IMG/VR virus record: IMGVR_UViG_3300032285_001531
Direction: 5' to 3' (one strand)
DNA: 64,000 nt
Origin: a virus
Lineage: Duplodnaviria > Caudoviricetes
A program made the position numbers and the translations under genes. Positions 40,124 through 64,000 of the stretch are shown piece after piece; position 1 is the stretch's first letter, and the number at the start of each line of letters is the position of its first letter. The notes beneath the pieces are model-generated. The model had not been told where the DNA came from. It did not search any database and was given only the letters and a program-made list of their open reading frames with translations.

Positions 40124-42307
40124 ATGCCTATACAAGGACAAGCAAATATCAACATTGGAGCACAGAATTCAGTCGCAAATAGCGATTCATTATTCACGGC
40201 TTTTAATAAAATACAGAATAATTTCACTACACTTTTCACAACCGCAAGTAACTACAATACTTTTGTTGGAAATAATGGAATAGCTACTGAGTCAACTAGT
40301 TCAACCGGTACACTCAAAATCACAAATACTGGCGTTATTAATGTAATAGCGGGAACTGGTATTACAGTAAACAGTGCCAACGGAAACGTTATAATCAGTA
40401 TGTCAGGTGACGGGACTGGTAATTTAGTGGCAGGTGTTACCAATGTTGCATTAGTTACTAATACATTAGAAATTACAGGTAGTCCTATAGTAAGTGCTGG
40501 AATTATGACAGTTGATTTGCCATTACTTCCTGCATTAGTACCCGGTCAATATGCTACACCAGTAATGTCAGTAGATGAATATGGTCGTGTAACACAAATT
40601 GCAAATTCAAGTATTGCTGGTACTGTTACTTCAGTTGCAGTAAGTGGTGGCAATGGTATTTCTATAACAGGCAGTCCGATAACATCAAATGGTACAATAA
40701 CTGTAACTAATACAGGTGTGACTAGAATTAATCCAGGTCCCGGTATTGTAGTAACTGATAACACCGGTGAACTAACAATTTCTGCAAAATTATCAAGCGG
40801 CACAGTATCACAAGTTAGTGTGTCTAGTACCACATTAACTATTACAAACCCAACAATAACTACAGCAGGTACTATTACCATTGACTTACCTACTAATATA
40901 AGCATAGTTGGTAATATAACTAATTCTGGTAATACAATAACATACGGCAACATCACAGGTAACAGAAATGTGCAGATAACTGGGAATCTGACAGCTAATG
41001 GTAATATTTCTGTAGCAGGAAACTTAGTAGCATCAACTCCAGATAATATCAAGATTGGTGGAGGTACATCAAGTTATTTCTTACAAACAGACGGTGGCGG
41101 CAATCTAAGTTGGCAACCAGCTCCGGGTGCAGTTGGAACTACAACTGCTGCTGCAGGTAGTAACACACAAGTACAATTTAATAATGCAGGTGCAATTGGT
41201 GCTAATGCTGGCTTTACTTTTGATAAAGTTACAGGAGTTTTTACTGCTCCTAAACTATCAGGTAACGGTGCTAGTGTAACTGGAGTATTATCTGCTAATA
41301 ACGCAAACTTTGCCGGATCAGTTACTGGTGCTACCCAAAGCAATATCACAACTGTTGGTAACTTGGTTAACTTATCTGTAGTTGGAAACATTAGAGCAAA
41401 TGGTAACGTAGTTGCATTAGGTACTATATCATCAACTGGTGCTATGTATGCACTGACTCCTAGTAATTCAATAAGTAACACGACAGTTGCTACTACAGAA
41501 TTTGTAAACAATGTTATATTAACTAAAGCTCCATTAAATAGTCCAATCTTTACTGGAATTCCACAAGCTCCTGAAGTTGCAAATATAGCAAACGTTATAT
41601 TCCCAAGTTCACAAATTGCTACATTGAATTTCGTAAAAGATTTTAACGCTAATAAAGCTCCTTTAACAAGTCCGAGTTTTAATGGTATTCCACTAACACC
41701 TGATGTCACATTAGCAAATGCCGTTACTGCACCAGCCAATCAAATTTCTACAATTAATTTTGCAAGAAACTATGCTAACAGCGTAGCAAGTAACTCTAGC
41801 TTCCAAACTTCAGGTACATTAGGTAGTGCTAGATTACCTTCAGGAACAATATTACAAGTTCAGATGGCAGTAAGTGGTCCGGCAAGACAACAAATTAATA
41901 CCACTCTTAATGTTGCAGTATTAGGTCTTAAAATTAACTTTACACCGTTATCAGCTACTAGCAGAATTATCATAGATTGTGTTATTAGTGCAACTCCTAC
42001 TTATGTTCAGGGTTTTGGAGTATACAAAGACGGAGTTCCTACAGTTAATAATAATGTTGGTGGCATAGCTCCTTGGACTGCTGGTTTTCAGGTTACTAGT
42101 TTTATAGGTGTTAGTACTGCATCTGATTGGATAATGCAAGTTCCATTTAAACATACTGAAATATCAGGATCTATTGTACCTAGAATTTATGAAGTTTATG
42201 CCGGATCTCATTGGCTTGGAGTAGCATATGATATGTATATCAATAACAGAAAATCAAACGATATGGCCAGCTTCAGTTATATGACAATCTATGAAGTAGC
42301 AGTGTAA
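40124..42307 (+). CDS. tail fibre / baseplate-associated structural protein
   Basis: gp9/gp10-like N-terminus INIG...DSLFTAFNKIQNNF; G/N/T beta-repeats; APL.SP.F.GIP repeats. Confidence 0.7.
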   Translation: MPIQGQANINIGAQNSVANSDSLFTAFNKIQNNFTTLFTTASNYNTFVGNNGIATESTSSTGTLKITNTGVINVIAGTGITVNSANGNVIISMSGDGTGNLVAGVTNVALVTNTLEITGSPIVSAGIMTVDLPLLPALVPGQYATPVMSVDEYGRVTQIANSSIAGTVTSVAVSGGNGISITGSPITSNGTITVTNTGVTRINPGPGIVVTDNTGELTISAKLSSGTVSQVSVSSTTLTITNPTITTAGTITIDLPTNISIVGNITNSGNTITYGNITGNRNVQITGNLTANGNISVAGNLVASTPDNIKIGGGTSSYFLQTDGGGNLSWQPAPGAVGTTTAAAGSNTQVQFNNAGAIGANAGFTFDKVTGVFTAPKLSGNGASVTGVLSANNANFAGSVTGATQSNITTVGNLVNLSVVGNIRANGNVVALGTISSTGAMYALTPSNSISNTTVATTEFVNNVILTKAPLNSPIFTGIPQAPEVANIANVIFPSSQIATLNFVKDFNANKAPLTSPSFNGIPLTPDVTLANAVTAPANQISTINFARNYANSVASNSSFQTSGTLGSARLPSGTILQVQMAVSGPARQQINTTLNVAVLGLKINFTPLSATSRIIIDCVISATPTYVQGFGVYKDGVPTVNNNVGGIAPWTAGFQVTSFIGVSTASDWIMQVPFKHTEISGSIVPRIYEVYAGSHWLGVAYDMYINNRKSNDMASFSYMTIYEVAV

Positions 42308-42350: not shown

Positions 42351-45194
42351 ATGGCTATACCAACCCCACAACAGACAATTATCAGCACAGGGACTGACCC
42401 TGCGTTGGCCACATATGGAAACGCACTAAATTCTGCGGCATATGTTTCTAATGGAAATGTTACTTACAACATTACCCAGATAGAACAAACGGTCCAAAAT
42501 ACTACCCTAACTAACAATTTCAACAATACTGCCGGAGGATCCGGCGGACAAGTTCAATTCAACGTCAATGGTGTGTTGACCGGTGATGCTGGCTTCATCT
42601 ACAATCCTAATAATGACACAGTAGTTGTTTCAGGAAATGTACTTACTGGCTCAATCAGTGCAACTGCTAATATTACTAGTGCAGGAAATATAAGCGCAAA
42701 CATTGTCAATGCAGCTAATTTAAGAACCGATCATCTACAACATGCAAACGGTGACTCCTATGTTTTCACTGCTGTAACAGGCAACATCACTTTTGATGAA
42801 GAAAACATCATAAGCACTGGCAATATGTATCTACAGCCAAATGACGCTAGTGCAAGTGCAGTTGACATTTATCTAACTGGAAGTAATGATGTTCATATGG
42901 CAACTAGTGCATCAGGTGATATGCTTTATGTAGGTGGAGATAATCAATATGTACGTTTAAACTCAACTGGTAATGTTGACATTCAATCATATGATTCAGG
43001 CACAGATACAACAAATACATGGAACTTTAATAATAACGGTCAGTTAGTATTTCCATATGGCGGAATTATTGGTCCAGACGGTGGAGAGAGTTTAATAGTC
43101 AATGCTAAAGATGGTGTAGCAATGTATTCTAGTAACAGTTTAGTAAGCACTGGTGCATTAGATTTATCTGCAGTATTTACTAATACTAATAACAATGATT
43201 TACCTGGTGTTGAAATTTGGGCTAGAGCAAAAGGAAATGCTACTAGTACATGGACGTTCAGTAAAGACGGGATAATGGCTTTCCCAAATAATCGAATCAA
43301 TGTTGGTGCTGAAAGTATTGATATCGTAAGTAGCAACTATAGCGAATTATTATTTGAAAATAGTGATGCAGCAAATGCAGCAAATGGTGACGGTATTACT
43401 TCATACATATATATTGAAGGGAATCAAGCAGGTACCGGAATTGAAACAAAGAACGGAGAGAATTATTACTGGTATAATTACAGTGACGGAACTGCTGTTT
43501 TCCCTGCAGGAATTTCAATCGAAAACAACTACAAACAATATTTTAATGTTATAGTTAACACTAATACTGGTTCAGGCATCAATCTTCGAATTAATATTAA
43601 TGTTACTGCTGCAGGTGAAATGATTATTGTAGGCATAGCAAACGGTGGTAGCGGATATGTTGTCGGTGATAGTGTTTTTGTTTTAGGTACTGCAATTAAT
43701 GGTACAAATTTACTTAATGATGTATACATGACCGTTGCTGCAGTTAATGGAAGTGGTACAATTACAAGCACTGGTGGGTTAACAATTGATACAACATATA
43801 CTCATCCACTAGACGGTGTTAAGTTTGCAGGTGGAGGTGTAGTATCTGGTACTGATGCTAACGGTAATGTAACTATTCAAACTTTTGATAGTGAAGGCCC
43901 TACCAGTTACAATTATGCGTTTACTAATCAAGGCACATTAGAAGCTTATGATAATTTTTATATCAAAAGTCCAAGTTTTGTTGACATGCTTTGGTATAAT
44001 GATAATGTAGTTGGATCTAAAAAGGTAGGTGATTCTGACACTACTGGATTCCATGCTCAAGATAATACTGCTACAATATATGGTTCATTATACAATGCAG
44101 GAAGCACTGAATGGAATTTTTCAAATGATGGTACATTGTCAGCTCCTGGTTCAATTCATATGAACGGAGACGGTAGATATTTTCAAGTTAGCGTAACTAG
44201 TGATACTGGATCTGGTGCTAATCTTCAAGTATTGGTTTATGTTAATCTTGCGGGAACTGTTAGTATCTCATCTATTAGTAACGGTGGACAATATTACAAC
44301 GTCGGTGATGTATTATTCATAGACGGTAGTTTAATTGGTGGCCATGAAATAGCTAATCAAATTAATATTGAAGTTATCGGAACAGGTACCGGTGGTGTTA
44401 TTGAAGGTACAGGTCAATTGACAATCACAAGCGGTATTGGTCCTAGATCAGGAGTAGAATTCAATAATTTTGCTGCAGTTCAAACTGATGACAATGCTAA
44501 CGGTAATTTAGTTTTCCAATCATTTAATACAAATACAGAAGAATTTTACTATTCAACATTTGATAATACAGGTAATCTATCTGTTCCAGGTGAAATTCAT
44601 TTAATAAATGACAATGCACACGGTGGTGCAGGTTATGCAGGAATGATAACATTTGAAAATACAACCAGTGGTGCGACCAACACTAAGAAATTTGTACGCA
44701 TGAATAGTACTGGTAATCTTGAAATTATCAATAATGGATACTCTACAACTTTATTATCATTATCTGATAGCGGTAACTTGAGCATTTATGGTAATGCTAA
44801 TGTAGGTAATTTAGGTACTACTACTGCTATTATCACTACAGGTAACATCACTACTGTTAATACTGGCTTAGTTCAGAATGGAAACTCAAACGTAACTATT
44901 ACTGCTAACGCAAATATTACACTAACTGCTACAAGCAATGCTACAATGGTTATCACTGGTACAGGTGCTAACGTAACTGGTTACGCTAATATATCAGGTA
45001 ATGTCAGTGCAGGTAATGTTTCAGGGGCAATTACTCTCGCTACACTAGCATTAAAAATGCCAGTATATGCAGATGCTACTGCTAGAGATGCAGCTATTAC
45101 TTCTCCGACTGCAGGTATGATAATTTATAATACTGGTTCAGGAAATGTGCAAGTTTATAGTGGTTCTGCTTGGGGTAATATAACTGTATCATAA
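42351..45194 (+). CDS. tail fibre / adhesin-like structural protein
   Basis: GGSGGQVQFN..G...GDAGF fibre motif; N/G/T-rich; duplicated internal module. Confidence 0.7.
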   Translation: MAIPTPQQTIISTGTDPALATYGNALNSAAYVSNGNVTYNITQIEQTVQNTTLTNNFNNTAGGSGGQVQFNVNGVLTGDAGFIYNPNNDTVVVSGNVLTGSISATANITSAGNISANIVNAANLRTDHLQHANGDSYVFTAVTGNITFDEENIISTGNMYLQPNDASASAVDIYLTGSNDVHMATSASGDMLYVGGDNQYVRLNSTGNVDIQSYDSGTDTTNTWNFNNNGQLVFPYGGIIGPDGGESLIVNAKDGVAMYSSNSLVSTGALDLSAVFTNTNNNDLPGVEIWARAKGNATSTWTFSKDGIMAFPNNRINVGAESIDIVSSNYSELLFENSDAANAANGDGITSYIYIEGNQAGTGIETKNGENYYWYNYSDGTAVFPAGISIENNYKQYFNVIVNTNTGSGINLRININVTAAGEMIIVGIANGGSGYVVGDSVFVLGTAINGTNLLNDVYMTVAAVNGSGTITSTGGLTIDTTYTHPLDGVKFAGGGVVSGTDANGNVTIQTFDSEGPTSYNYAFTNQGTLEAYDNFYIKSPSFVDMLWYNDNVVGSKKVGDSDTTGFHAQDNTATIYGSLYNAGSTEWNFSNDGTLSAPGSIHMNGDGRYFQVSVTSDTGSGANLQVLVYVNLAGTVSISSISNGGQYYNVGDVLFIDGSLIGGHEIANQINIEVIGTGTGGVIEGTGQLTITSGIGPRSGVEFNNFAAVQTDDNANGNLVFQSFNTNTEEFYYSTFDNTGNLSVPGEIHLINDNAHGGAGYAGMITFENTTSGATNTKKFVRMNSTGNLEIINNGYSTTLLSLSDSGNLSIYGNANVGNLGTTTAIITTGNITTVNTGLVQNGNSNVTITANANITLTATSNATMVITGTGANVTGYANISGNVSAGNVSGAITLATLALKMPVYADATARDAAITSPTAGMIIYNTGSGNVQVYSGSAWGNITVS

Positions 45195-58695: not shown

Positions 58696-60588
58696 TTAAT
58701 TTGCTTCTTTTACTTCGGCATCAACAACTGTTTCATCAGTTGGAGGACCATCTGGCATTTCTTTGTTGCGCTTCTCAGCTTCCCAAGCAATAGTTTTCTG
58801 CATCAACTCACCAATTTCTTTAACTGCTGCGTCCATGTCATCTTTACTATCGCCCTTTGCCGTCTCTTTATATTTACTTAGAGATTCAGTGATGGCTGTT
58901 TTTTCCTCAGCAGGAACATAATCACCTAAATTCTCAATTTGAGATTCAAGATGACCAATGCTACTATCTAAACTATTACGTGCACCAACAAGTTCAACAA
59001 TTTTCTTATCTTCTTCAGCATTCAATTCAGCATCTTTGACCATTTGATCAATCTCTTGCTCTGATAAGCCACTGTTTGCTTTGATTGTGATTTCTTTTTC
59101 TTTGTTGGTTTTCTTATCAACTGCTTTAACTGATAAGATACCATTCGCATCAATGTCAAATGTAACTTCAATTTGTGGTACTCCGCGTGGTGCTGGATCG
59201 ATACCTTCTAAATTGAATTCACCTAAACGTTTGTTACCACTTACAATCTCACGTTCACCTTGATAAACACTGATAGTAACTGATGGCTGATTGTTTTCTG
59301 CAGTAGAATAAACTTGACTGTACTTTGTAGGTATAGTTGTGTTCTTCTTAATCATCTTAGTCATAACACCACCCATTGTTTCAATGCCTAATGATAATGG
59401 AGTTACATCTAATAACAATACGTCTTTACGATCACCACCTAATACTGCACCTTGAATTGCTGCACCAACTGCAACGGCTTCATCAGGATTAACATCTTTA
59501 CGTGGAGCCTTACCGAATAGCTTCTCAACTTCTTCTTGCACCTTAGGCATACGTGTCATACCACCAACAAGAATAATCTCATCAATGTCACTTGCAGTAA
59601 CGCCTGCATCTTTCATTGCAACTTTACATGGCTCAATACTACGCTGAATTAAATCTTCTACTAATGATTCTAACTTAGCACGTGTGATCTTAACATTCAA
59701 ATGCTTAGGACCAGTTGCATCTGCAGTGATGTATGGTAAGTTAACATCAGTTTGTGTACTGTTAGATAGTTCAATCTTTGTACGTTCTGCTGCCTCTTTC
59801 AAACGTTGTAGTGCCATCATGTCTTTACTTAAATCAACACCTGAATCTTTTTTGAACTCAGCAATGATGTGATCCATTATTCTTTGGTCAAAATCTTCAC
59901 CGCCCAAGAATGTGTCACCGTTTGTGGAAAGTACTTCGAATTGTTTATCGCCATCCACATTATTGATGTCAATGATAGATATATCAAAAGTACCGCCACC
60001 AAGATCATAGACAGCAACTTTGCGGTCTGTTTTTTCATTCTTATCTACTCCATATGCCAATGCTGCTGCAGTTGGCTCATTAATAATACGCAATACTTCT
60101 AAGCCTGCAATTCTACCTGCATCCTTAGTTGCTTGACGTTGACTGTCATTAAAGTACGCTGGTACTGTAATAACTGCTTGTGTAACTTCTTCACCTAAGA
60201 AATCTTCTGCTGTCTTTTTCATCTTACGTAAAACTTCAGCACTTATTTGAGGTGGTGCATACTTCTTATCTTCTACTTGTACCCATGCATCACCGTTATC
60301 TGCTGCAACGATTTTATATGGAATCAAGTCAATATCTTTCTGTACTGCTTTCTCATCAAACTTACGTCCGATTAGTCGCTTAGCAGCATAGATTGTATTT
60401 TTTGGATTAGTTACAGCTTGACGTTTTGCTGGTGCACCAACAGTGATTTCACCGTTTTGCATATACGCAATAATACTAGGTGTAGTTCTTGCACCTTCGC
60501 TGTTCTCTAATACTTTTGGGGTTTTGCCATCTATGATAGCAACGCATGAATTGGTAGTACCTAGGTCGATACCTATAATCTTAGACAT
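58696..60588 (-). CDS. dnaK: molecular chaperone DnaK (Hsp70)
   Basis: [52 protein letters not shown]. Confidence 0.98.
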
Positions 60589-60660
60589 ATTTTTCTCCTT
60601 TAAATTAAGCAAGATTTTTTATCAGAAGCCCGTAAGGCGCATCTGAGACATGTATTTATA
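60589..60660 (-). promoter_or_regulatory. late promoter plus ROSE-like RNA thermometer leader of dnaK
   Basis: TATAAATA 60653-60660, hairpin 60622-60646, CTTGCTT 60607-60613 able to pair with AAGGAG 60595-60600. Confidence 0.65.
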
Positions 60661-61441: not shown

Positions 61442-62434
61442 ATGCTAATCAACGAGATTCTAACAGAAGCCATCAGTCTAACACAATACGAAAGTAAGGT
61501 GCAAGGTATGATTATTAAAGGGCTCCAAAAGGCTCTAAAACGTTTATCCAAAACTAAAGGTAAATTTCCCGAAGAAGAACAGGAATTAACACAGAATGAT
61601 CGTAGCTATCCATTTAGAACACAAATGGTGAATCTTTTTACAAGATATCTAGCCACCGATATTGCTAAAGAATTCAAAAACTTAAAAACTATTGACGGTG
61701 TTCAAGTGGACACTATCAAGTTTATCAAATCTGAGTATGGCGGATACGCACAAGGAACTGATCTTTACATCGGTTCTATAATTATAAAAAATATTGCCAG
61801 AACAACAATTGATACTATCGATCAATTTTGCATTGATGCGTCAGGTGAATATCCTGATCGTGTTACTACATTTTTCACAATGTGTTCTATAATTGCTGAT
61901 GGGGTAGACAGGCATAGTAAATTCTTACTGAATGAAATACTTGACCAAATTCAACCAAGTGTAGATTCTATAATTAACACTGTTACACATGAAATGGTTC
62001 ACACAACTCAACATGGTCGCCAGTTTCAAAAAGGAAGAAGTAACCTTGAATATCGCAGTTATTTGGATAAAAAGAAAGGCGAGTTTATAAAGTTACACAA
62101 CAACAAAGACTGGAATAAAAATCCTCGTGCAAGAGAATTGTATTACGCTAGTCCACAAGAGATTCCTGCATTTGCACATGAAATCGCTCTGTATATTATT
62201 CGTGCGTATGCTCTACCAGAAATAACTTCAGTTGAAGAAATTTCAACAGTAACTCCTGAAGATATTACTTACGCAATGTCTAGATATCCAATGATAGCAA
62301 GTCTTGCTACTAATCCTGATCCTAGAGCAAAGAAAGTTTATCAACGCTATGCTAAATTAATATACTCGGAAGTTCAGAATTACATTCAACAATTAAAACA
62401 GAAACTAACTAAAGAAGCGGTACCTGCTACTTAA
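61442..62434 (+). CDS. zincin-like metalloprotease domain protein, possible virion protein
   Basis: VTHEMVH (HExxH), Y..SPQEI.AFAHE; N-terminus MLINEILTE. Confidence 0.7.
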   Translation: MLINEILTEAISLTQYESKVQGMIIKGLQKALKRLSKTKGKFPEEEQELTQNDRSYPFRTQMVNLFTRYLATDIAKEFKNLKTIDGVQVDTIKFIKSEYGGYAQGTDLYIGSIIIKNIARTTIDTIDQFCIDASGEYPDRVTTFFTMCSIIADGVDRHSKFLLNEILDQIQPSVDSIINTVTHEMVHTTQHGRQFQKGRSNLEYRSYLDKKKGEFIKLHNNKDWNKNPRARELYYASPQEIPAFAHEIALYIIRAYALPEITSVEEISTVTPEDITYAMSRYPMIASLATNPDPRAKKVYQRYAKLIYSEVQNYIQQLKQKLTKEAVPAT

Positions 62435-62908
62435 GTTAGATTTATCATTTACCATACGGTCAAATTGACCACTCTTACCATCAAAGTAAAATCCACTAGG
62501 GTCTAGTATCTGACCTCGTAACTCAACCCAACTATGCGGTATCCATTTGAATTCTTCACGTATTGCAGGATCACTGTTTATGTATTTGATGCGGTCTGAT
62601 TTCTTGCGTGGATCAAGACCTAATTGTTTCATTGCTAATTTATCTTTTGTTTCTAGTGCGTCAATATGTAGATCAGGTTCGTCTGCATGAAACCATCCAT
62701 ATTTTTTCTTGCCGTTGTTTACAATACCAATAGGAACAATCTCGGCATTACCTATACCTTTATTCTCTAAGAATGATATAAAATCTTGACTGGCGCCATA
62801 ACAATTATCTTGTACAAAGTAATAGTTCAATTGCATTGGACTAGCTTGCTTCCAAAACTCAATTAATAATGGATCAATTTTTGATCCTGCAAGTTCAAAG
62901 ATTTTCAT
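62405..62908 (-). CDS. transglutaminase/papain-like fold protein (putative Cys-His-Asp)
   Basis: DNCYGAS ... HSWVELRGQILDP. Confidence 0.55.
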   Translation of the reverse strand: MKIFELAGSKIDPLLIEFWKQASPMQLNYYFVQDNCYGASQDFISFLENKGIGNAEIVPIGIVNNGKKKYGWFHADEPDLHIDALETKDKLAMKQLGLDPRKKSDRIKYINSDPAIREEFKWIPHSWVELRGQILDPSGFYFDGKSGQFDRMVNDKSNLSSRYRFFS

Positions 62909-63393
62909 TTTATACGAGGAATGACGTTGGTATCCCAATAGCTTTTCTTACCAATGCGACTTTTATCTACGTCTGGTAAATCTTGCCATTGTTTAGAACG
63001 TTGTTTGCTTTGCTCTACATCAAAGCCTGTGTAGTCATCAGGTACCCATTGCCATTTGTGATGATAGATCCAAGGATCAACTGCCTGTTTAGTTACTTTA
63101 ACGGTACCATCTGGTGATACTCTGATACTGGTACCACTGATTGGTTCGTCTGCAGTATCAAAGTCAGGTGATTCTATGAATGAGAATGTTTTTAACTTGG
63201 GATTGTATTTGATTACAGTAAAGTCAAAATCATTTGGGATTTTTGATTGTGCAAACTTTAATTCGTCTGCAGGAATTCCGGCTTCTATCGCATATTGTTT
63301 ATGCACATAAAGTTCTCCGCCAATACGCTTTCCTATCTTTCTAGGTTGTTGCGCAGCTTCTACTATGTTAATTAATTTACGTATATCACTCAT
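62905..63393 (-). CDS. protein resembling a domain of DNA phosphorothioation-associated putative methyltransferases
   Basis: GK.IGG..YVH, F..SPDFD...EP, P.IYHHK..V.DDY, SRIG...YW; recalled similarity, not searched. Confidence 0.5.
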   Translation of the reverse strand: MSDIRKLINIVEAAQQPRKIGKRIGGELYVHKQYAIEAGIPADELKFAQSKIPNDFDFTVIKYNPKLKTFSFIESPDFDTADEPISGTSIRVSPDGTVKVTKQAVDPWIYHHKWQWVPDDYTGFDVEQSKQRSKQWQDLPDVDKSRIGKKSYWDTNVIPRIK

Positions 63394-63430
63394 AGATATA
63401 TTTATCTGGCAGGGCATAACCATTAGGTAG

Positions 63431-63450
63431 AAAAAGGTAGCAAGCTACCC
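63431..63450 (-). terminator. intrinsic terminator of pqqA
   Basis: GGTAG-CTTG-CTACC then T5 on minus strand. Confidence 0.7.
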
Positions 63451-63477
63451 TTATCTTAAAACTTATTTTACAATGTA

Positions 63478-63549
63478 TTAGCGATTTGCAATGTACATTG
63501 TGATTTCAAAACCAAAACGCAAATCAGTTGCTTGAGGTATTGTCCACAT
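63478..63549 (-). CDS. pqqA: coenzyme PQQ precursor peptide PqqA (23 aa)
   Basis: not in ORF track; [23 protein letters not shown] with ExxxY core; AAGGAG RBS 63556-63561; TAAATA 63586-63591. Confidence 0.93.
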
Positions 63550-63660
63550 GTTATTCTCCTTAAATGAATACATATACTGCATATGTATTTAAGATATAGT
63601 AACACGTAAAAACACCAAGGTATTGCAGATAATCATTGGCTGATACTAATGAAAATCATT

Positions 63661-63835
63661 AAAATGCTCTGCGACCCTCGGCGGTAATTATAGTACTAAC
63701 AGCTTCGTCTAGCTTTCGCCGCATCAACTGTTAAATACCTTCCACCCGCTCCCCGACAGGGTCCGTTCTCGCATTGCCAGCGCACTTTTCGCCTAAGTGT
63801 AAGGTCCTACGAGGAATTACCTCGCTTCTCATCTT
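63661..63835 (-). ncRNA. candidate structured RNA with RNase P S-domain / T-box-like double T-loop module
   Basis: GC-rich non-coding island; nested hand-folded stems; GCGAGAA and GGUGGAA joiners flanking one helix. Confidence 0.55.
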
Positions 63836-63856
63836 CCGGACCAGAATAGAGTGTGA

Positions 63857-64000
63857 TTAACACTCACGTTCTTTACGAATTCGCCATCTTTCTAATTGAG
63901 CTAGGCGAATTTTTTCTTTTTGTTCAATAGTCATAGGAATTCCTAATTTTCCATTTGGTTTTCCTTTTTTATTTTGACTTATTTTTTGATTTACTATATC
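63857..64000 (-). CDS. C-terminal fragment of NUMOD3-type homing-endonuclease-like protein (runs off window)
   Basis: KISQNKKGKPNGKLGIPMTIEQKEKIRLAQ resembles NUMOD3 repeats. Confidence 0.6.
   Translation of the reverse strand, partial: DIVNQKISQNKKGKPNGKLGIPMTIEQKEKIRLAQLERWRIRKEREC

Follow-up and report, generated by a model that had tools for sequence, protein, structure and literature searches.

A stand-alone pqqA gene in an uncultured tailed phage and its probable role in supplying the precursor of PQQ to the host

In fresh water and in the sea, many Betaproteobacteria draw their energy from periplasmic alcohol, methanol and sugar dehydrogenases that depend on the cofactor PQQ. Its synthesis uses up the precursor peptide PqqA, one molecule of which is spent for each PQQ made: a glutamate and a tyrosine of the peptide become cross-linked and form PQQ, and the leader of PqqA is the part recognised by PqqD. 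The presence of this precursor on a phage has been described for the Lake Baikal phage population VP_266, which also encodes a methanol dehydrogenase and whose hosts were assigned to the Methylophilaceae; PqqA was read there as an auxiliary gene for PQQ-dependent metabolism of the betaproteobacterial host (Coutinho et al., 2020, Microbiome 8:163; PMC7678222). A 2026 paper counted viral pqqA, pqqD and pqqE among phosphorus-cycling genes.

Similar genes are present in cultured phages of Methylophilales (MEP301, Venkman, P19250A, MEP401/402 and Melnitz), as stand-alone ORFs of 23-24 codons with a Shine-Dalgarno sequence and no pqqB-E; pqqA goes unmentioned in the papers on these phages. The statement that phage P19250A is without these auxiliary genes (PMC7678222) does not hold for pqqA, of which P19250A has a copy. 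On the bacterial side, the comparison is with operon-type PqqA of freshwater Burkholderiales (Oxalobacteraceae MAGs, Zwartia-like Alcaligenaceae, Derxia and Methyloversatilis), where 91 of 134 loci with the peptide type of the window have pqqB-E inside the roughly 8 kb or less examined per locus. A purely functional analogue, unrelated in protein and pathway, is psbA (D1) of cyanophages, a phage copy of a rapidly used-up host component that keeps host energy metabolism running; its role in infected cells is experimentally established, whereas for phage pqqA we infer a role.

Here, we describe pqqA in a window of 64,000 nucleotides, the whole stretch of DNA analysed, from the IMG/VR record IMGVR_UViG_3300032285_001531. 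A first-pass annotation had recognised a 23-residue peptide with an E-x-x-x-Y core near its end, and both the sequence and the coordinates agree with ours (Table 1): the ORF lies in an AT-rich stretch at the end of the window, and the sequence and the ORF list give a peptide of 23 amino acids, in the size range of PqqA (about 20-40 aa), with E15 and Y19 inside ...GFEITMY.... Profile searches bore out the assignment, since both models exceeded their curated cut-offs. The Pfam PqqA model PF08042 scored 36.2 bits against a cut-off of 21.1, with model positions 1-19 of 19 covered, and the NCBIfam equivalog model TIGR02107 scored 31.8 bits against 20, with positions 1-21 of 21 covered. The window ORF is confirmed as a genuine, intact and full-length PqqA-family gene.

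Table 1. Coordinates of pqqA and of the signals around it in the window.
Feature	Position	Strand	Remarks
Intrinsic-terminator-like hairpin and T-run	63429..63453	minus	between pqqA and the next gene
Stop codon TAA of pqqA	63478..63480	minus	read from the sequence
pqqA CDS, 23 codons	63481..63549	minus	cross-linking residues Glu15 and Tyr19
Shine-Dalgarno AAGGAG	63556..63561	minus	6 nt ahead of the pqqA ATG
8-bp palindrome with 5-nt loop, ATACATAT-GCAGT-ATATGTAT	63568..63588	minus	candidate RNA hairpin or DNA binding site
TAAATAC promoter-like box	63585..63591	minus	T4 late promoter-like; 4-nt overlap with the palindrome

When likened via its published description, VP_266 shares with the window a pqqA gene on an uncultured large tailed freshwater phage of about 35% GC. 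The two differ in that VP_266 encodes a methanol dehydrogenase, whereas HMM searches found no PQQ alcohol dehydrogenase in the four large viral records, related or with pqqA, that were checked here, and in that the hosts of VP_266 are Methylophilaceae, whereas the window peptide is not of the Methylophilaceae type. The peptides of the cultured Methylophilales phages are 61-65% identical to that of the window. In contrast to the latter they are of the host-identical Methylophilaceae type ending in TEMRFGFEVTMYVMNK; their genomes are mostly of 35-45 kb, and the cassette of TAAATAC box and palindrome is absent. Viral pqqA was thus already published in 2020, with the same functional proposal (PMC7678222), and the window is a further example. 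New are a variant peptide of the IANR type with a Met-Trp start, which in the scans made appears to be confined to viruses, the frequent location of IANR-type pqqA in the tRNA arrays that large phages carry, and a cassette of box, palindrome and terminator that is conserved, together with complete giant phages that have no other pqq genes.

The distribution of pqqA among viruses is wide. A tblastn search of GenBank phages with the pqqA peptide, a check on short ORFs proposed in the first-pass annotation, recovered stand-alone pqqA in cultured Methylophilales phages. It returned 12 records, nine of which are cultured phages of Methylophilales/Methylophilaceae (MEP301, Venkman, P19250A, MEP401, MEP402 and four Melnitz strains) and one an uncultured podovirus. 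The other two, labelled 'Acinetobacter phage MD-2021a' (CAKLQF020000010.1 and CAKLQH020000055.1, L012), were rejected as bacterial DNA with a full pqqABCDE; they carry ppk, pqqABCDE and a dipeptidase gene and resemble a bacterial chromosome. In the true phages the pqqA ORF is unannotated or hidden under a wrong-strand call, and it is unannotated in all of the cultured Methylophilales phages matched. Viral copies were gathered with IUPAC back-translation patterns, and the pattern for RFGFE[VI]TMY occurs in at least 120 IMG/VR contigs.

Among the unique viral copies of 23 codons, all 103 have a Shine-Dalgarno-like core upstream, and W2, P5, R11, G13, E15, Y19 and N22 are invariant. Over the 13 codons left free by the search pattern, codon entropy is 11.4 at third positions, as compared with 5.5 and 4.6 at first and second positions. 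Third positions therefore vary about twice as much as the others, the signature of a translated and selected gene, and purifying selection maintains pqqA across hundreds of viral contigs.

Several features of its surroundings mark pqqA in the window as phage DNA. The coding sequence has 36% GC, close to the value of about 35% found throughout the window, as compared with a median of 48% for bacterial pqqA copies; its DNA identity is 91% with viral copies, and no bacterial copy found exceeds 87%. The window encodes 11 tRNAs, DnaK, ClpX, CsgG, a DNA ligase and tail-fibre-like proteins, and phage genes flank pqqA on both sides. The order pqqA, methyltransferase, DnaK is common to the window and seven IMG/VR contigs, with DnaK identity of up to 83.5%. 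Such conserved synteny, together with the conserved cassette, the third-position variation and the phage-like composition, indicates a gene that phages retain stably and under selection, as would be expected of an auxiliary metabolic gene.

The gene next to pqqA is 59% identical to its best IMG/VR relative, and a blastn search with positions 62400-64000 gave no match among GenBank phages. A functional tie between pqqA and the neighbouring 172-aa gene was considered and rejected, as the loci found via this gene (L003-L007) are without pqqA. A tRNA lies within 1 kb of pqqA at 21 of 89 IANR-type loci, as compared with 1 of 96 loci of the Methylophilaceae type; in the closest relatives pqqA sits inside tRNA arrays, and in the window 2.7 kb separate it from the nearest tRNA.

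Just upstream of pqqA lies a GC-rich structured RNA of about 210 nt (63650-63868, minus strand, running past the window end; 55% GC as compared with 35%). Homologues were found in eight other loci (L391, L015, L043, L404, L387, L357, L344 and L383), and of the 45 pairs predicted by RNAalifold, 15 show compensatory double changes. In relatives this RNA occurs within tRNA arrays, where it begins 8-9 nt past one tRNA and abuts the next. An Rfam search with it matched no family, and we regard it as a candidate for a new non-coding RNA family. The adjoining ORF fragment at the window edge (63857-64000, minus strand) comprises the C-terminal 47 residues of a protein with lysine-rich, NUMOD-like repeats; a Pfam search with the fragment gave no match, and it probably represents a homing endonuclease inserted in the structured RNA. 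Elsewhere in the window, an envelope and signalling block that is unusual in a phage (26712-32671, minus strand) encodes a CHASE2-adenylate/guanylate cyclase of 684 aa, a FecR-domain protein and the curli pore protein CsgG; a cyclase 56% identical to this one occurs in another viral contig (L055).

The sequence of the peptide also bears on the host. The commonest viral peptide, MWT[KT]PAATEMRFGFEVTMYVMNK, is identical to that of Methylophilus, Methylotenera and other Methylophilaceae. The window peptide falls in a second viral group (the IANR type), ending in D[LM] followed by 13 residues. Over its last 17 residues it is the same as PqqA from freshwater Oxalobacteraceae MAGs and Zwartia-like Alcaligenaceae, and also from Derxia, Aquabacterium and Methyloversatilis. 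The freshwater Burkholderiales copies share up to 87% of their nucleotides with the window gene; they differ in their higher GC and in an extra residue, which in all bacterial peptides of this type stands between Met and Trp. The window peptide is set apart from every bacterial copy found by its Met-Trp start and by unique Ile4 and Gln6. The pattern with the Met-Trp start occurs in 80 IMG/VR contigs, many of them longer than 100 kb, and had 0 matches in 185,579 bacterial species genomes (one genome per species).

The first-pass annotation had proposed a PQQ-using, possibly methylotrophic, betaproteobacterial host. A betaproteobacterial host that makes PQQ is indeed plausible on the sequence comparisons, and the best 80 cellular relatives of the phage DnaK are all from Betaproteobacteria, at 70-77% identity. 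Nothing points specifically to methylotrophy: the peptide differs from the Methylophilaceae type and would rather fit freshwater Burkholderiales, such as Oxalobacteraceae or Zwartia-like Alcaligenaceae. Two routes to a closer assignment were rejected. The phage DnaK (Hsp70) is full-length (58696-60612, minus strand; 854 bits), and in a DnaK tree it groups, at 100% support, with the copies of four IMG/VR contigs and of two complete phages of about 360 kb in a clade that lies outside the Burkholderiales families sampled, so that DnaK does not point to any one family. The second route was a 947-aa tail-fibre-like protein (42351-45194, plus strand), whose last 57 residues match the C-terminal end of the baseplate wedge protein of Melnitz, an OM43 phage, at 47% identity; a stretch of 57 residues is not long enough to assign a host. 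This C-terminal module has a 62% identical copy in a related viral record of 106 kb (G001). One bacterial record deserves separate mention: 'Candidatus Methylopumilus sp. Tobar2m-G31' (G010, locus L534) is a 3.0-Mb MAG whose DnaK groups with that of Zwartia (Alcaligenaceae) and whose pqqA locus has 50% GC, and its label or its bin is probably wrong.

We now turn to the expression signals. The AAGGAG ribosome binding site claimed in the first-pass annotation was found exactly where it had been placed. So was a terminator belonging to the gene, with the qualification that it lies slightly outside the interval 63478-63591 given for the unit: at 63449-63431 stands a hairpin, GGTAGC-TT-GCTACC, with a T-run of TTTTT behind it and a fold of -11.5 kcal/mol. 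The terminator stem GGGTAGC/GCTACC and the T-run are kept in the seven syntenic relatives compared (L391, L359, L387, L363, L337, L377 and L357), with loops that vary. Upstream, the order of box, palindrome, AAGGAG and pqqA is kept in eight relatives (L333, L404, L397, L391, L387, L363, L357 and L337), in all of which the palindrome reads ATACATGT-GCAGT-ACATGTAT. As compared with these, the window palindrome has a symmetric double change from G:C to A:T that leaves the pairing intact. Signals of this kind are enriched at viral pqqA in general, with inverted repeats upstream at 97 of 191 viral loci (25 in shuffled controls) and terminator-like sites downstream of 62 of the 191 genes (2 in shuffled controls).

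The first-pass annotation had further combined a TAAATA promoter with a 5′ hairpin. Both elements are present and conserved in relatives, but they may not both serve one transcript. There are 22 copies of TAAATAC in the window, 13 of which precede a same-strand gene start by at most 100 nt, with 2 antisense; for TAAATACT the corresponding count is 10 of 12. The box resembles the T4-type late promoter (TATAAATA). It also stands upstream of the tail-fibre-like genes at 40124 and 42351, a placement which suggests that it behaves like a T4-type late promoter. If it is of this type, the transcript start would fall in the loop of the palindrome, and a promoter and a 5′ RNA hairpin would hence be incompatible for a single transcript. 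The palindrome may instead be a DNA site, or be active in read-through RNA. As an RNA fold on its own it is not significant (z = -1.2; 23 of 200 shuffles were equally good), and an Rfam search with the pqqA leader matched no family.

The further claim that no pqqB-E lie in the window holds as well. A tblastn search with PqqB, C, D and E of Acinetobacter found none there, and none beside pqqA at any of 196 viral loci, whereas the same queries, as a positive control, found pqqB-E at 137 of 234 bacterial pqqA loci. The window gene does not head a pqqABCDE operon; operon linkage is no strict hallmark of pqqA, since 97 of the 234 bacterial loci are also without pqqB-E within the 8 kb or less examined per locus. 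HMM searches covered related or pqqA-bearing large viral records, including ones of 367, 359, 169 and 163 kb that are 93-100% complete by CheckV. In five such records the best matches to the PqqE model reached 15-29 bits, against a cut-off of 381, and concerned the radical SAM core only. A PqqD-type recognition domain was looked for in four of the five, and PqqB in four, without a match; the search for PqqC, which took in all five and two further large records with pqqA, found none either. The positive controls, Derxia lacustris and Methylophilus rhizosphaerae, were strong. The large pqqA phages covered by these searches carry the precursor gene alone out of the PQQ pathway.

We consider it probable that this phage-borne, stand-alone pqqA is an auxiliary gene which keeps a consumable precursor available to host PqqB-E during infection. 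Such a reading is the most economical, because only the precursor is supplied and it comes with its own expression signals. The phage would transcribe pqqA during infection from its own, probably late-type, promoter, and PqqD/E, a protease, PqqB and PqqC of the host, which is assumed to have pqqB-E, would turn the phage peptide into PQQ. As host transcription presumably declines in the course of infection, and one peptide is destroyed per PQQ, PqqA would be the component likeliest to run out. Its supply could then keep periplasmic PQQ-dependent dehydrogenases loaded and maintain energy flow until lysis, following a logic like that of cyanophage psbA, in which a rapidly consumed host component is replaced. 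The occurrence of pqqA on several scaffolds in genomes of methylotrophs, for example Methyloversatilis, fits the idea that precursor dosage matters.

A decoy function, processing by a gene cluster of the phage itself and an assembly artefact are each less likely than supply to the host. As a decoy or regulator, the phage peptide would occupy host PqqD/PqqE, or some other binding partner, but yield no PQQ, and host PQQ synthesis would be shut down or redirected, for instance sparing S-adenosylmethionine and reducing power. We think this unlikely. The shortened N-terminus of the IANR-type peptides, which occurs in 80 viral contigs but in none of the bacterial species genomes searched, would be in keeping with it; yet the consumed Glu and Tyr and the whole core, all unnecessary for a decoy, are invariant in the 103 viral copies, which weakens the case, and the identity of the commonest viral type with the Methylophilaceae host peptide argues for a normal substrate.

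Processing by phage enzymes has, in our estimation, slim prospects. Here, radical SAM and 2-oxoglutarate oxygenase genes of the phage would make PQQ or another modified peptide without host PqqB-E, and generic radical SAM genes do occur in related viral records. The proposal is weakened by the lack of PqqD/E-like genes in related complete genomes: the PqqE-model matches in the five large viral records are those to the radical SAM core described above, and the searches for PqqD-type domains, PqqC and PqqB in these records were empty to the extent given there. Moreover, phages of 35-45 kb have pqqA without a radical SAM/oxygenase cluster. A special form of the idea, which strikes us as highly improbable, is that the IANR peptide represents a virus-specific PqqA lineage processed by the radical SAM enzymes and oxygenases of large phages, without host PqqB-E, into PQQ or a PQQ-like quinone; if true, lineage and enzymes would together amount to a self-contained viral cofactor pathway.

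Least probable of all is that pqqA is not a phage gene, being either host DNA at a chimeric assembly joint, a risk at the contig end that the first-pass annotation had itself raised and that the 'Acinetobacter phage MD-2021a' records show to be real, or an att-site remnant within host pqqA: the phage-like GC, the 91% DNA identity to viral copies, the flanking phage genes and the recurrence of both cassette and synteny in seven other viral contigs make a chimeric join very unlikely and close to refuted, and the many synonymous differences between copies argue against the identity constraint of an att site.

Supply of the precursor to host PqqB-E thus remains the preferred explanation. Of the PQQ genes, many phages of Betaproteobacteria, whether podoviruses of 35 kb or giants of 360 kb, have retained the precursor gene alone, which points to PqqA supply as the weak link in the energy metabolism of the infected host. 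With its 72 nt, pqqA may serve as a marker for host prediction of uncultured phages, and it represents a widespread viral metabolic gene that has been systematically missed by gene callers and in published annotations.
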